From assembly GCA_000442015.1 (NCBI GenBank), contig KE561167.1, positions 1 through 64,000 on the forward strand: a stretch of 64,000 nucleotides of DNA. The letters are read 5' to 3'. The stretch is from Rozella allomycis CSF55 (taxonomy: Eukaryota). The translations under genes and the position numbers were made by a program. The notes below the pieces were generated by a model. It did no database searches, was not told where the DNA came from, and worked only from the letters and a program-made list of their open reading frames with translations. Every line of letters starts with the position of its first letter. The first letter of the stretch is position 1. Of this stretch, positions 20,344 to 34,923 are shown piece after piece.

Positions 20344-22376
20344 ATGAAGGACGTTCGGATACAGTTTGGAAGTCCGGGTAATGTGAAAATAATAAAAATT
20401 GGGAATGAAGATAATATAGAAAATATCCTTATTGGTGCTTGTCAAAAATTTGAAGTGAATGAATTTGACAGATACTGTCTTAGGGACCATAATACACTGG
20501 AAGTAATTAATGATATGGTAATTAATTTAATATTGCGTAAATAAGAACATGGAAAAGATTTCTCAAGATACTATTTTGCTATTAGACTATTGCGACATAG
20601 TGTTAGCAGCTAAATCTGTAAAGGATTTGAAGGATAATCTGAATGATGCTCTGCAGACAAAAAAGATTATATTTCAGCTTCAAAAATATTTAAAATTGGA
20701 GAATTTTTCAATTGAGTTTTTGAAAATGAATGGGCTACAGATTTTAAAGAAGATTGCGTTAAACAATGGAGGGAATATATTGGCTTACACACTTTGCTGT
20801 TTCAGTAATTGCCTGAAATATTACAATGGCGAAATGTTTGAAGAAATTTTTGATGTTGATTTTATTAATTTTCTATTGAATTGTGTGTTTACCCCGACTT
20901 TGACGATATCCAGATGGGCTACAGCAACATTGATATGTATTGTTCAACAAGATGTATTCAACTTGGAGGTCATTTTAACTACAGGAGAGAGATTTAGTGA
21001 TTTGATAGACAAGTTAAACTCGTCTGATCTGCAAACGCAGTTGTTTACTTTGCAATTGTTAAATTCAGTCTATAAACGCATTCTTAAAGATGAAAGAGTC
21101 ATAAATGGTGAATTGGAAATATTTTATGGATCTAAAATCCGGGATACATTAATCAAATTCTCATTCATAGATGAGATCAGTGATGAAATTGTCAAGTTTC
21201 AATCACTGTTTGTTCAGAATTGTTATTTCAAAAGGAATTCTCTTGTTCAAGATTATCGAAGATATTTAGAAAGATTTAGTTTGCAAGATGATTTAACTGA
21301 AATGGTGATTTCCGCTATTCAAGGTCAAACTTGCAATGTTTTGAATTTATCCAATTTGGCTCACTTTGTTAAAAACAATTCCGATAGATTTTTAAAGGTA
21401 TTTCGACATTAATTTCTGTATTAAAGATGGCTGACTTGAATTTCTCATTCTGTTATTGTAGTTTTGAAATAACAGAGTTCTTGTCATATATTTGGCATTT
21501 CGATTCGAAAGTTATTTCAAATAACCGAATCGACCCACCGTTGCTTTGTTTAGAGCGAGTTCATGATACTCTTTTAACCACGGTATTTCGAATTTGGCGG
21601 GAAGAAAGAGCGAACGTTAAGATTGAATTCTTAATAGATTGCCATAAAGTTTACTTTAAAAATCTATTGGAAAAAGAAGAATTCACATGGATTGATCAAT
21701 TTGAAACCTTTGCAAACTCTTTAACTTTCAATGAAGCTAAAGAATTCTATGAATTACATAAACTGGATGGTTTAATGAACTCAAGCAACATAAAGTAAAT
21801 CACATAATTCATTTTCAACTGAGGAAACTGAAAACAAATCTTTTGGAACGCAATACAGAATTTATTAAAAGGCAAAGAATTCAATGTTTGACCAAAGGTG
21901 AATTCTTTCTAATTTCAAGTAAAGAATTAAAGCTTCAAAAAGCTAAAATGTTTATTCGTCTATCTTCCAGTCAAAAATATTTGGCGTTCTCCATAGAAGA
22001 GACGAGTGAATCTGTCAGCAATAAATTGGATTTAAATTCAATCTCAAATATCAAATGGAAAAAAGAAAATTCATTTTTTCACATTTTTTTACATTCACAA
22101 GAAAATGTTGTAGCAGATTTAGCAATAGAATCAGAAACTTCTTTCAATGAATGGTTAGATGGTTTGTCATTTTTGATCTTGGACAAATGCCAAACAGAAG
22201 AAACATTGGCATTGATAAATAATCTAAGTAATCTTGAGTTGGAAGCTAGAGTTTTCAATATTGATGAAAATGAATCTTTGGAAAGAAATAGATTCAATTA
22301 TTCAGATATTTCACTTCCAAGCGATTGCGAGTTTAAATTATCAGATAATCAAATAAAAGATATTTTTTACGCATGA
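20344..22376 (+). CDS. ELMO/CED-12 family protein
   Basis: N-terminal ubiquitin-like segment, ARM region (FLKMNGLQIL), PH domain starting FIKRQRIQCLTKGEFF and containing WLDGL. Confidence 0.7.
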
Positions 22377-23404: not shown

Positions 23405-24961
23405 ATGAAAGTGCAGGATATTTTATCATCTTACGAAGCCTTTCGAACATTAAAACCAGATCAAATTAACACCATTGCTTCATTGTTTAAGCCATTCAAA
23501 ATATCCAAAGGCCAAACATTGGCTAAACACGGAGAGCGCCATTCAAGCGTTTACATGTTGTTCTCGGGAAATGTTAGCGTCTATTCACATCATGGAAGTG
23601 ACCAACATAAAATCAATGACATCAAAGCGCCATGCTTGGTTGGATTTACATGTTTATTCATAACAAATGCAATCGCAACCGCTACCCTCATAGCTGACTA
23701 CGATTCTGATGGATTCATTGCCGACAGATCTGCTTTTGAAACTCTAGTTATTCAAGATCCTGAATTAAGTGCTTGTATGCTGAAGTACATGGCATTGGAG
23801 ATCAGATCTTGGAGAGTACAAGATGCCGCCACATTGTCCTCCCAAAAGAAATCCAAAATTGTTGTATTCGATTCCAAACCATATGATATATTGTATTTTA
23901 ACAAACATGCAGAGAATTACAACGATTTAGGTCTTGAACTTGACTTTGTGGAATCTAGACTTTCAGAAAAGACTGTGTCTCTTGCACAAGGTGCAACTGT
24001 AATATATATTAATACTAATGAAATAGGTGGTTTCTGTATTTGTTAATGACACAGTGAATGCCCAGGTGGTACAAATGCTGACTGGTTATGGTGTTAAATT
24101 GATAGCACTTAGATGTGCAGGCTTTAATAATGTTGACTTGAATGCATGCGACATGTTAGGCATGTCTGTAGCGCGAGTTCCTGCATACAGTCCTTACGCA
24201 GTAGCAGAACATGCACTTGCGCTCATGCTCTCACTTAACAGAAAGACTCATCATGCGTATACAAGAACCAGAAACGGTGATTTCACTTTATCAAATTCTC
24301 TTATTGGATTTGACATGCATGGAAGAACAGTTGGTGTAATCGGCACTGGTAATTCATTCAATATTAAAACAGAGGTAAAATTGGAAAAATATTAGTCAAC
24401 ATCTTAATTGGACTGGGATGCAATGTTTTATGTTACGATGTGTATCGTGATGAAGAGTTATGTCATAAGCAGAACGTGCGATATGTGGATACTGTTGATG
24501 AAATATATACATCTTGTGATGTAATATCGCTTCACTCACCTTTACTCCCTGACACAAAACATATGATAAATGATGATGCAATCTCCAAAATGAAAAAAGG
24601 TGTCATGCTAATCAATACCTCGCGGGGAGGCCTTATCGATACCATGGCTTTAATCCGCGGCCTTAAAAGTGGTATGGTTGGATCTGCAGGTTTAGATGTT
24701 TATGAAGGCGAAGAAGAATATTTCTTCAGAAATTGGAGCGATCATGTTATTAATGACGATTTACTTGCCCGCTTAATGACCTTCAACAACGTTCTTGTCA
24801 CAAGCCATCAGGTAAAATTCAGATAAAAAATTTGAAAGGCCTTTTTTACTAAAGAAGCATTGGATGCCATTTCATCAACAACATACCTGAATGTTGAAGA
24901 ATTTGTTAAAGGGGGCAAAAAGATGAAGCAACTTACTAATACCGTCAATAAAAGTGCTTAG
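23405..24961 (+). CDS. D-lactate dehydrogenase (LdhA-type) with N-terminal cNMP/CRP-like domain
   Basis: [62 protein letters not shown]; first ~140 aa resemble a CAP effector domain in the same exon. Confidence 0.9.
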
Positions 24962-25516: not shown

Positions 25517-25916
25517 TTAATAGTAGTAATAATATTTCTTATAATGTCCGTGGCCGCGATGTCCATGATTGCGGTGGCCATGATGATTTCCGTGATGGCC
25601 TTTATGTCCGTGGCCATGTCCATGGCCTTTGCCATGCCCGTAACCATAGCCGTAGTCTTCATACGAGTCATAATAATCATTCTTTCCATCAGAGTATTTG
25701 TCGGAGTAGTAATCATCATAAGAGTCATCATCCCCACGCTTTCCGAAATGACCACGTTTATGATGTCTACCACCATATCCATATCCATTACTAATCATTA
25801 TCATTATATATATCATACTAATCATATGGGGAATAATCATCAGAATATTTGTCGTATCCGTAGGCCAATGTGGCAGGAGACAATGCAGACAAGAGAGCCA
25901 AGATTGTGAACTTCAT
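25517..25916 (-). CDS. Small secreted Gly/His/Tyr/Asp-rich protein
   Basis: MKFTILALLSALSPATLA signal, 28-nt intron, then GYGYGGRHHKR...GHGHGHKGHHG...YKKYYYY. Confidence 0.8.
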
Positions 25917-26170: not shown

Positions 26171-28434
26171 TTAAAATGCAGCAAATTCTGAAGCCGGATT
26201 TATCTTTTGACGCATGACTCTTCCACGTTTCTTGGCTGCTTCTGCTTCCTCCTTTCTCTTTGCTGCTCCTGAGAGATATTTCTTTGACTCTATAGGTTTT
26301 TCTTTCAATCCAAATGACTTGGCAACGTGACCTAAATGCAAATTCTTGACATGAAAATAAGCCTTTTCAGATTGAGGATGAGTGGAATAGGCCTTTAAAT
26401 AGGACATTAAAGCAGTTCGAGCCATTTTCACCATCTAATTAAAGAAAAAAGATTTAAAATTACTTTTTCTTCAACGAATTGTTCGTATTGATATTGAAGT
26501 TTTATTTGAGCATTTTCATCGCCGATTCTGGAGAGCAAAACGTCGCATTCTTCAGAAATAAATTCCATTCCCATTTCTTTTAATACTTCAACATATCCAA
26601 TTTCACTTGGCTGCATGAAAAGAACCGCTTCACCTCGATTGTTAAGTCTGGCAGTTCGTCCGATTCTATGAACGAAATCTTTCACATCACAAGGAGCATC
26701 GAATTGCACAATCATGTTCACTAAAGTGGATGCGTTCCAATCCAATCCACGAGCAGCAACGTCTGTACAAAACAATATCCCGTTCTGGGATTTGGAATAC
26801 TCTTTGAAAATATTCGAACGATCAATTTGTTCCATTGACCCATGAAGTCTAAATATAGGAAAATTTGATAAAATAGCGCTAGTGCTCTTGGCAGCAGTAA
26901 GTTTCCCATCTTCTAACTGTTCTTCATCTTCACTGTCTGATTCATCATCGCTTTCTGCGTCCTTTAATGATTCACGTTTGAAGAATGTGAGTAAAGTATG
27001 ATAAAATTCTACTGAATCTTTGCAAGCCAGAAAAACAATTGCCTTGAATGGTTCTTTGTTATGAATCATGTTAAGCTTAATATGTTTTTCTAATAAAGAA
27101 TATAAAGCTAGAAATCTTAATTTTGTAGGAACAACGACACATTTTTGAATTAAATTTGATGGAATGACTATTTTCCCTTCTTCTTGCAATTGACCATGTA
27201 TTGTGACTGGATTCTTCAATGTTTCCCCCGCTAAACTTGAAACCTTCTCTGGAAGAGTTGCACTACACAAAATGACTTGAAATGTCTTTTCACTCTTATT
27301 CTTCAGTAGTTCCAAAATTTCTTTAACTTTCTTCTCAAATCCCATATCCATCAATCGATCAGTTTCGTCTAAAATCAATGTCTGTATAAACTTGGAATCA
27401 AAACTAGAAGTAGTTTGCAAATGATCTAATAATCGTCCAGGAGTAGCAACAAGGATGTGGATTCCTTTTCTCAATCTTGCCTTTTCAGACTTCCTTTTAT
27501 CCCCACCAACAATAACACCTGGCACTAGAGTCACTCTACACTCATCAGACACTTGCAGCGGACCTGAAAGCAATTTCTCTAACACACTATAAATTTGCTG
27601 CGCTAATTCTCTAGTAGGCGTCAAAACAATGGCCAGGGTCCCAAGATCTCTAATATTCGTGTTTTGAACCTTCAAAGATTCCGCTAGGAGAAGACACCTC
27701 TGTATCACAGGTAGTAGAAATGCAAGAGTCTTGCCAGAACCAGTCATTGATTGCATACACAAATCACGCTCAGGTTGTTCCAATAAACACCCAATAGTTT
27801 TGGATTGAATAATAGTTGGTTTTGATATACTGTTTTTATCCAGTTTTTCTATAACTGAGGGCAATAACCCAAGCCCTTCAAAACTCAATTCTTCATTACC
27901 GAAAATATCTTGAGAGTATTCTTGTGATTTACGCTCTGTAGTAATTAATTCAATTCTATCTATAGTTTTTTCTTGTGGGACTTGTTTGGTTGACAATTTT
28001 GAATTTCCAGTCGCTGGTCTCTTTGCCCTCTTGATTTGTAATTCTGGTTCAGATATGTCGTCTTCATTGTCTCCAGTTTTTTCCAACTTTCTCTTGACTG
28101 GTTTTGAGCCTTTTGATTTGTTTTTTAACTTTAAAAGTAATTCCTTGGTTGATGTTGACGGCGACTTCATTTTATCAATTAATACAATATCTTTATTTGA
28201 CACTTTCGAAGGCTCTGTATTTTTTATTGTAGCCATATCACTTGGATTATTTTTCTTTAACTGTTCCGCTTTATCCTTTTGTAGATTCTCTAAAAAGTTC
28301 TGTCTGTCGGATTTTTCTTTCGCATATGTTCTCTTGGACTTCTTTTTTCTATTAGCTTCTACTCTTTGTTTCCATGTAACTTTTTTCTTCTTCTTTACGC
28401 TGTCATCTTGGACAATATTTAACAAAAAACTCAT
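26171..28434 (-). CDS. DBP7: DEAD-box rRNA helicase Dbp7/DDX31
   Basis: TGSGKT, PTRELA, KRKSEKARLRKG, DETD, SAT, HRIGRTAR, LHLGHVAKSFGL. Confidence 0.92.
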
Positions 28435-28731
28435 TAAGATTTTTGTTGCAGCCAAGCCACAGTTGTGTATTCACTTTGTAAAGTCACATCGTGTTTTCAT
28501 CATGCACAAAAAACTACAACAACTTCTGTTACAAAAACTATAGACCGTTCATTTTTTAAAATAAACTCACACCCTGCCTTTTTTGTTGAACACGTTTATC
28601 GCAATCTCCAAAACTGGTAAAATTATCAATCACATTGTTTGTAAAATATTTCATCCTTCAAGTCAAATTATGCACAGGAATATGGAAAAAGGTGCCTATA
28701 AACATTTTTATACCCTGGTCGAACTTCACAC

Positions 28732-34624: not shown

Positions 34625-34743
34625 CCTAATGATTATCAATAAATAATTTTATAGTAAAATATTTAAAATTGCATTCTTTACTCAAAAATGTGAAGAGCTT
34701 TGGTTGTATTCTGTTGTAAAAAACACGCGATTAATACTTACAT

Positions 34744-34825
34744 GGTGAGATGGCCGAGCGGTCTAAGGCGTATGGTTCAAGTTCTTATCTCTTCGGAGGC
34801 GTGGGTTCAAATCCCACTCTCACTA
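34744..34825 (+). tRNA. tRNA-Leu(CAA), type II, intronless
   Basis: Acceptor GGTGAGA/TCTCACT, D arm, anticodon loop TT-CAA-GT, variable arm CTC-TTCG-GAG, GTTCAAATC T loop, T-run downstream. Confidence 0.88.
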
Positions 34826-34923
34826 TTCTTTTGTCCTTTTTCCTTCTTTTCCTTGGCCCCTTTTGTTTTAAGGCAAACTGTCGAGAAACAGAATTGTAGT
34901 TAAAACGATTTATTTTATACAGT

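Follow-up and report, generated by a model that had tools for sequence, protein, structure and literature searches.

To our knowledge, the proteins on which cyclic nucleotides act directly are few, comprising kinases, exchange factors, channels, CRP-type regulators and one acetyltransferase family. In this last family, represented by mycobacterial Pat, cAMP relieves autoinhibition of the enzyme (PMC8556138), and by analogy Pat could serve as a working model for the gating of other enzymes fused to a cyclic nucleotide-binding (CNB) domain. A fusion of a CNB-type domain to a D-lactate dehydrogenase (D-LDH) is encoded at positions 23405-24961 of a 64,000-nucleotide stretch of the Rozella allomycis CSF55 genome (contig KE561167.1, positions 1 to 64,000; hereafter the window). 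The reading towards which we lean, with some reservation, is that of an active LdhA-type D-LDH carrying a degenerate CNB sensor that would no longer bind a cyclic nucleotide monophosphate (cNMP) and would serve as a CRP-like dimerisation or regulatory module.

The gene lies on the forward strand and consists of four exons and three introns specifying 491 amino acids, as determined from its open reading frames (ORFs) and a frame check; the joined reading frame is 1476 nt long, contains no internal stop and is terminated by TAG at 24959-24961. Exon 1 (23405-23998, 594 nt, beginning with the ATG at 23405) is unbroken, has an in-frame stop upstream, and encodes residues 1-198, that is, the whole CNB domain (approximately residues 1-143), the linker and the first approximately 50 residues of the D-LDH catalytic domain. 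Since the junction between the two halves lies inside exon 1, splicing is not its source, as the initial annotation had argued; the coordinates given there were correct, and every peptide string that it quoted was present in the exon 1 translation. Exon 2 (24027-24348) completes the catalytic domain and begins the NAD domain, exon 3 (24375-24811) encodes the NAD-binding domain with Asp327, Arg389, Glu416 and His450, and exon 4 (24839-24961) the C-terminal return to the catalytic domain together with the stop codon. The introns (23999-24026, 24349-24374 and 24812-24838; 28, 26 and 27 nt, respectively) are all of the GT..AG type with GTAA at the 5' end and have a GC content of 14-23% (14% in intron 1); the second splits the GTGKIG NAD-binding motif (24342-24385). 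A second copy of the gene was sought within the window, and none was found.

The N-terminal CAP-type domain proposed in the initial annotation was borne out by both profile and structure comparisons. Pfam cNMP_binding matched residues 32-117 (23498-23755, the beta-roll core of the sensor) at 33.5 bits, above the gathering cut-off of 27.5 (E 4.1e-8), and a phmmer search of the PDB with the sensor placed the cAMP-regulated acetyltransferase Pat on top (E 1.2e-7), with PKG, PKA-R and Crp/Fnr proteins next in rank. When exon 1 was modelled by AlphaFold2 from 83 aligned sequences, the mean predicted local distance difference test (pLDDT) value was 91.5, and the model placed the beta-roll strands between residues 29 and 107, helices at 108-117 and 119-143, and the first dehydrogenase strand at 150-155. 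Foldseek matched this model to GlxR, the CNB domain of PKG and M. tuberculosis CRP at E values of approximately 4e-11 and a probability of 1.00, with the long C-terminal helix (C-helix) included. The predicted sensor thus displays the beta-roll, flanking helices and C-terminal helix of the CNB fold, and residues 1-140, for which the initial annotation had proposed this check, do contain a cNMP-fold match. No Pfam match to a helix-turn-helix DNA-binding domain was found after the C-helix, where the 2-Hacid_dh domains stand instead. The top NCBIfam match of the sensor was ActPatMycb56 (42.2 bits, against a cut-off of 460), confined to the CNB part, and the GNAT acetyltransferase domain that marks the Pat family was not found by NCBIfam after the CNB domain. 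Word-based searches cannot enumerate so divergent a sensor, as is evident from a search with exon 1 among longer proteins, which returned the Rozella protein itself only, and from one with the N-domain of its nearest homologue, which returned that protein and the Terramyces one only.

The dehydrogenase half appears intact, in agreement with the initial annotation. Exons 2-4 matched Pfam 2-Hacid_dh (exon 2, E 5e-18) and 2-Hacid_dh_C (exon 3, E 1.4e-36), and the enzyme half aligned end to end with solved D-LDHs, including those of F. nucleatum (5z21, E 1.7e-98) and E. coli (3wx0, E 1.9e-94). Arg389 (24623-24625), Glu416 (24704-24706) and His450 (24806-24808), as well as Tyr252 (24186-24188), the GTGKIG motif at residue 304 and Asp327 (24437-24439), all match their equivalents in 5z21 and 3wx0; from established family knowledge, we take the first three to be catalytic, Tyr252 to contact the substrate, and GTGKIG and Asp327 to bind NAD. 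Because the catalytic and NAD-binding residues are all kept, and in view of the homology to characterised D-LDHs, the enzyme half is expected to reduce pyruvate to D-lactate with NADH, regenerating NAD+.

Relatives were taken as the best 120 of 8000 proteins scored in a search with the Rozella protein, a selection biased towards fused proteins because the query is itself fused. A hidden Markov model (HMM) of the N-domain matched 88 of these 120 (84 strongly, 4 partially). Fused members from chytrids included Boothiomyces HDV06_003752, Terramyces HDV01_001680, Batrachochytrium salamandrivorans BASA50_006563 and proteins of Globomyces pollinis-pini and Nowakowskiella; others came from Balamuthia mandrillaris, from the EukProt entries Sdes and Awhi (both presumably ichthyosporeans), from a record labelled Zophobas morio (P0068), and from bacterial metagenome-assembled genomes (MAGs) of Opitutaceae, Spirochaetales and Candidatus Aureabacteria. 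When bacterial and archaeal species genomes were scanned with the junction pattern [VIL]A[FV]FD[STA]K[PK]Y, at least 598 stretches were obtained, of which 10 were confirmed, in MAGs of Phycisphaerae, Planctomycetaceae, Spirochaetaceae, Leptospiraceae, Leptospirales, Deltaproteobacteria, Myxococcota, Myxococcales, Polyangiaceae and Thermoanaerobaculia. All 10 of these loci are single ORFs of 480-616 amino acids with cNMP_binding (41-78 bits) and both dehydrogenase domains. Neither a conserved neighbour nor an adjacent cyclase was found at the 10 loci, and gene neighbourhood therefore gives no functional hint. The ESM Atlas held two look-alike clusters with both domains (score 0.98 each), one of 111 members (cNMP_binding in 77%, commonest phylum Bacillariophyta) and one of 74 (96%, Myxococcota); one of the two may be the Rozella protein's own. 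The fusion is thus widespread in bacteria and protists, with at least many dozens of members, and both the protein and its domain string are already present in public databases. No paper on a CNB/D-LDH fusion was found in the full-text literature (subscription-only texts and supplements lying outside the search), and a term search of a 2007 census of CNB families (PMC2246266) gave no occurrence of the word 'dehydrogenase'. A further candidate, PMC5381614, was set aside as not relevant, since it deals with a microsporidian malate/lactate dehydrogenase. Nor was any solved structure found to combine the two domains: when a full-length model was compared with the PDB, the best matches spanned 331-346 of 486 columns. 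The initial annotation knew of no characterisation of the architecture, which holds as far as the literature searched is concerned; rare it is not, considering its presence in 84 of the 120 best relatives and at all 10 bacterial loci. Among the relatives, P0002-P0008 and P0013 (from MMETSP, EukProt, JGI and Symbiodinium natans; approximately 680-820 amino acids) contain two tandem complete LdhA-type domains and no CNB domain, a different elaboration of the same enzyme.

In a canonical phosphate-binding cassette, Gly-Glu holds the ribose 2'-OH and Arg-(Ser/Thr)-Ala the cyclic phosphate; neither the Glu nor the Arg is present in the Rozella sensor, as had been noticed in the initial annotation. 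In a HMMER alignment with Pat, G80-F81 stands opposite GE and A91-T92-A93 opposite RTA, family alignments concur, and cAMP or cGMP is accordingly an unlikely ligand. The degenerate cassette (G80-A97, 23642-23695), in which F81 (23645-23647) takes the place of the Glu and A91 (23675-23677) that of the Arg, is also one residue longer than the bacterial type. In a census of 84 sequences (83 fused relatives and the Rozella protein), the Arg position was occupied by Arg in 68, His in 7 and another residue in 9, and the Glu position by Glu in 30, both residues occurring together in 29. The His-bearing sequences belong to a second chytrid/protist group (Nowakowskiella, Sdes, Awhi and the Zophobas-labelled protein, plus two others). 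All 10 bacterial loci have kept the Arg and one has kept the Glu; a hydrophobic residue (I, M, V or L) takes the Glu position at the other 9 and in 39 of the 68 Arg-bearing sequences, and even the bacterial sensors may not be ordinary cAMP or cGMP receptors. Cassettes resembling that of Rozella were found in Boothiomyces (GFTSLFIDKPTCSH), Globomyces (GFSSLFIPEAVNTS) and the fragment P0123 (GFTSLFIKDAIATC), the Arg position being C in Boothiomyces and Terramyces, N in Globomyces and A in P0123. Rozella and its chytrid sister group thus have neither Glu nor Arg, and share a conserved cassette motif GF(T/S)(S/C)LFI (GF(T/S)xLFI in its more general form) and a C-helix end E(I/L)RxWR. Judged from these alignments, Rozella and its sister chytrids share an old loss of the residues that hold a cNMP, and because of F81, A91 and the insertion, all viewed against this shared loss, the Rozella sensor most likely does not bind cAMP or cGMP. 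The several Cys and His residues, which had been taken as a pointer to a metal, haem or redox ligand, did not hold up as such: C77, C83 and C124 vary even among the closest fused relatives, and a Cys/His metal or haem site in the sensor was rejected on the ground of this lack of conservation.

For the enzyme half, IQ-TREE was run on 51 of 128 LDH-domain sequences (all named and eukaryote-type sequences plus representatives of the bacterial groups). Rozella fell in a clade of seven with Globomyces, Kappamyces, Boothiomyces, Terramyces and two other proteins (support 100/98), and the Rozella/chytrid clade was recovered by FastTree on all 128 sequences (support 97). The Rozella LDH domain thus groups with chytrid fused proteins of the Rhizophydiales type, of which the Rozella gene is, on these trees, an orthologue. 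A second chytrid clade (99/98) comprised Nowakowskiella, Cladochytrium, B. salamandrivorans and Entophlyctis. Compared with its closest homologues, the Rozella protein is 30-37% identical in the sensor and 64% in the LDH domain. Three members of the Rozella clade scored as unfused or partial (P0012, P0014 and P0015) still hold the cassette and/or the C-helix, and look like truncated gene models, not domain losses. Elsewhere in the tree, five seemingly unfused LDHs (P0029 from Cladochytrium, P0045 from Entophlyctis, P0072, P0101 and P0081) are close sisters of fused ones, and represent either recent domain loss or N-terminally truncated gene models. The protein with the beetle name Zophobas morio (P0068) groups with Awhi and another protein (99/94), and may derive from a gut symbiont or an assembly contaminant.

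The long C-helix (residues 119-143, 23759-23833), which ends in E(I/L)RxWR, is a predicted CRP-like dimer interface, and is followed by an interdomain linker (residues 144-149, 23834-23851) of low model confidence (pLDDT 60 for the block 141-150). Residues 1-147 were modelled as a homodimer by ESMFold2 in three runs, with three controls and with our own alignment supplied. The median score was 0.73 (0.70, 0.74 and 0.73 in the three runs) relative to 0.00 for the best control; at least 93% of contacts recurred between runs, and the pLDDT of the partner was at least 84. In calibration, the mark was reached by 20 of 30 solved one-chain pairs and 1 of 23 solved single chains from microbes, and by 17 of 29 pairs and 0 of 30 single chains from eukaryotes. 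In the model, residues 122-145 and 82-87 form the interface, which includes the symmetric contacts 126:126, 129:129 and 133:133, and the cassette residues 82-87 of each chain are packed on the C-helix of the partner. Such packing would explain the conservation of a hydrophobic cassette without its ligand residues. This predicted CRP-like homodimer of the sensor is the sole functional hint.

The same helix is affected by an apparent error in the deposited gene model. The sole close database match was the 477-residue hypothetical protein ROZALSC1DRAFT_29799 [Rozella allomycis CSF55] (P0001), which equals the present translation minus 14 residues, a 15-residue stretch being replaced there by L. 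The deposited model splices out 42 nt (23775-23816) that code for the core of the C-helix. This segment has a GC content of 45%, compared with 14-23% in the three introns of 26-28 nt, and the residues that it encodes are retained in homologues (for example, CILKYIASELRYWRD in Boothiomyces). Because of this exon-like GC content, a length greater than that of the real introns, and the retention in homologues, 23775-23816 is most likely coding and is probably spliced out wrongly in the deposited model. The public gene model thus probably drops 14 residues from the core of the sensor helix, which also form the core of the predicted dimer interface.

Taken together, these observations make us favour, with somewhat better than even confidence, an active D-LDH with a sensor that has retained its fold, hydrophobic cassette and C-helix after the ligand residues were lost. 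Two sensors would pair in the manner of CRP, C-helix on C-helix and each cassette on the partner's helix, and the sensor would act as a dimerising or regulatory module on a flexible linker tether. Either ligand-free or with a ligand other than a cyclic nucleotide, it would determine how the LDH oligomerises or how its domains close. The 'allosterically gated' enzyme of the initial annotation is plausible by analogy.

A number of points weigh against this reading. We infer the activity, substrate, oligomeric state and ligand binding of the Rozella protein. The sensor is highly divergent: phmmer against 1.84 billion representatives gave 411 matches at E<=1e-3 and 5 at E<=1e-10, mostly generic multi-CNB proteins, and only two of the 150 best matches contained an LDH domain (P0009 and P0123). 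An HMM of 65 bacterial-type fused N-domains scored Rozella at 62 bits (rank 125 of 173), whereas generic CNB domains reached up to 107 bits, so that this HMM does not tell fused sensors apart from generic ones. The case for a single origin of the eukaryotic and bacterial sensor halves is therefore made by their common architecture and receives no support from the sensor sequences. In the LDH tree, the backbone is a polytomy in which fused and unfused sequences interleave (14 changes needed), and because of this neither the number of origins nor the direction of transfer can be assigned. On the enzyme side, curated NCBIfam D-LDH cut-offs were not reached (PRK08605, 210.3 against 356; vanH_gen, 242.2 against 540), which lowers confidence in the name only slightly because other subgroups underlie these models; P0028, a bacterial fused protein, likewise falls below the cut-offs, and NCBIfam holds no model for a CNB/D-LDH fusion. 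As to the dimer, the calibration counts are only rough here since our own alignment was used, and the pass itself may stem from ESMFold2's memory of solved CRP-family dimers. Finally, in the full-length AlphaFold2 model of the Boothiomyces protein (486 residues, the closest complete homologue), both domains are predicted with confidence (pLDDT 91.8), but the predicted template modelling score (pTM) is 0.70, the linker (residues 136-142) has a pLDDT below 50, and no fixed contact between sensor and enzyme is predicted. A rigid helical coupling of sensor to enzyme was considered and found to be unsupported, given the low-confidence linker and the pTM of 0.70.

Other explanations can be weighed against the same evidence. 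That the sensor is still a ligand-gated switch, altering LDH activity on binding a nucleoside or a nucleotide that lacks the cyclic phosphate, or else a carboxylate metabolite such as pyruvate or 2-oxoglutarate, is a possible but distinctly less probable explanation. The fold and the pocket-forming cassette are kept with a conserved motif and show no decay, as would suit such a switch, and the frequent absence of Glu beside a kept Arg (39 of 68 sequences, 9 of 10 loci) hints that the family ligand may not be a standard cNMP; moreover, CNB-fold effector domains of the CRP-FNR superfamily sense 2-oxoglutarate (NtcA), o-chlorophenol (CprK) and haem/CO (CooA) (PMC10187061). However, conservation is lacking at every candidate ligand-contact residue, Cys and His varying within the subclade, and the hydrophobic cassette is predicted by the dimer model to be buried against the partner helix. 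It appears quite unlikely that cAMP or cGMP binds despite the odd cassette and turns the LDH on or off. The Pfam match above cut-off, the joint presence of Glu and Arg in 29 of the 84 family sequences (bacterial-type) and the precedent of cAMP-activated Pat (PMC8556138) would all be in keeping with a canonical receptor, but the replacement of Glu by F81 and Arg by A91, the insertion in the cassette, and an equivalent loss in all close relatives (C, C, N and A at the Arg position) speak against it.

The rapid evolution of the sensor relative to the enzyme, the missing ligand residues and the predicted flexible linker could also indicate that the sensor is an evolutionary relic without present role, attached to an ordinary LdhA. 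We consider this unlikely, as the frame is open, the fold is predicted at pLDDT above 90, GF(T/S)xLFI and E(I/L)RxWR are conserved in Rozella and several chytrid genera, and the three seemingly incomplete clade members (P0012, P0014 and P0015) keep remnants of the domain and look like truncated models. Least probable by far is an annotation artefact, with two genes merged or translation starting 3' of the sensor. The deposited model does already deviate inside exon 1, but the ORF is unbroken from 23405 to 23998 with an in-frame stop upstream, inspection of the translation revealed no ATG (Met) where the LDH part begins, and the fusion recurs in 84 of the 120 best relatives and also in bacteria, where splicing is not an issue and all 10 loci are single ORFs. 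Relative to these explanations, an active D-LDH with a dimerising sensor that no longer binds cNMP is the reading we prefer.

A CNB-type domain on a fermentative LDH would directly link signalling or metabolite sensing to redox balance, in a family found among bacteria in Myxococcota, Planctomycetota and spirochaetes, and among eukaryotes in chytrid fungi, ichthyosporean-type protists, Balamuthia and probably diatoms. Rozella is an obligate endoparasite with a reduced energy metabolism, in which the CNB/D-LDH protein is a probable route of NAD+ regeneration, and the Rozella branch constitutes a natural experiment in which fold and helix have been kept and the ligand residues are gone. A bolder and rather doubtful proposal is that CNB/D-LDH fusions as a whole, in several bacterial groups and eukaryotic lineages, are unrecognised small-molecule-gated fermentation enzymes in which the sensor would directly govern how fast NAD+ is regenerated; in the Rozella/chytrid branch it would have been retuned from a phosphate-bearing ligand to another effector, or to control of the dimer without any ligand. 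Older work on lower fungi has reportedly described allosteric D(-)-lactate dehydrogenases inhibited by nucleotides, a lead only, which would also suit the ligand-gated switch considered above; if the proposal were true and those reports concerned the CNB/D-LDH protein, the domain would be their long-unidentified allosteric site.

Elsewhere in the window, an ORF upstream of the fusion gene (21843-22376, forward strand) contains a pleckstrin-homology domain (PH_12, E 2.2e-13). Downstream, on the reverse strand, a 107-residue ORF at 25517-25840 contains many His, Gly, Tyr and Asp residues (GHGHGHGH and YYYYY runs) and has no Pfam match; it may represent a low-complexity protein, or simply a repeat that happens to form an ORF. 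Two adjoining ORFs at 26171-28455 (reverse strand) encode a DEAD-box helicase (DEAD, Helicase_C) with an SPB4-like C-terminal extension, presumably one gene broken near 26430 by a short intron or a frame change. A tRNA-Leu (anticodon CAA) at 34743-34826 (forward strand) is the sole tRNA and the sole Rfam match within the window.

Compared with known systems, the Rozella protein is closest to the chytrid and bacterial CNB/D-LDH fusions, with which it shares the domain order, a length of approximately 486-495 residues and a junction composed of C-helix, short linker and (V/I)xxFDxKxY; the bacterial-type members differ in having kept the cassette Arg (68 of 84 sequences overall, 10 of 10 loci). 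The enzyme half aligns with LdhA-type enzymes of E. coli (3wx0, 5z1z), P. aeruginosa (5z20), F. nucleatum (5z21), Dictyostelium (7wn9) and Chlamydomonas (4zgs) at E values from 1.7e-98 to 1.9e-94, and template modelling (TM) scores of these solved enzymes against the homologue's model are 0.87-0.94 when normalised by target length; unlike Rozella, they have no N-terminal extension, and the best TMq is at most 0.66. D-3-phosphoglycerate dehydrogenase (Ser33, 8q2i and 8pir; SerA-type) belongs to the same fold family, likewise with an added allosteric domain, and ranks 49-50 among the structural matches. Its regulatory domains are C-terminal, have the ACT/ASB fold and respond to serine, unlike the N-terminal CNB domain of Rozella. 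The CRP/FNR factors (GlxR, M. tuberculosis CRP and DNR) are the best structural matches of the sensor, long C-helix included, and the C-helix pairing and the contacts of each cassette with the partner helix in the predicted Rozella dimer are those of CRP; whereas these factors carry a helix-turn-helix domain, the C-helix of Rozella runs into a dehydrogenase instead. Pat (MSMEG_5458 and Rv0998; 4onu, 4oll, 4orf and 4ava) resembles the Rozella protein in bearing an N-terminal CNB domain on an enzyme, but the enzyme is a GNAT catalytic domain in Pat and a dehydrogenase in Rozella, and the canonical GE...RTA cassette through which Pat binds cAMP is replaced by GF...ATA.

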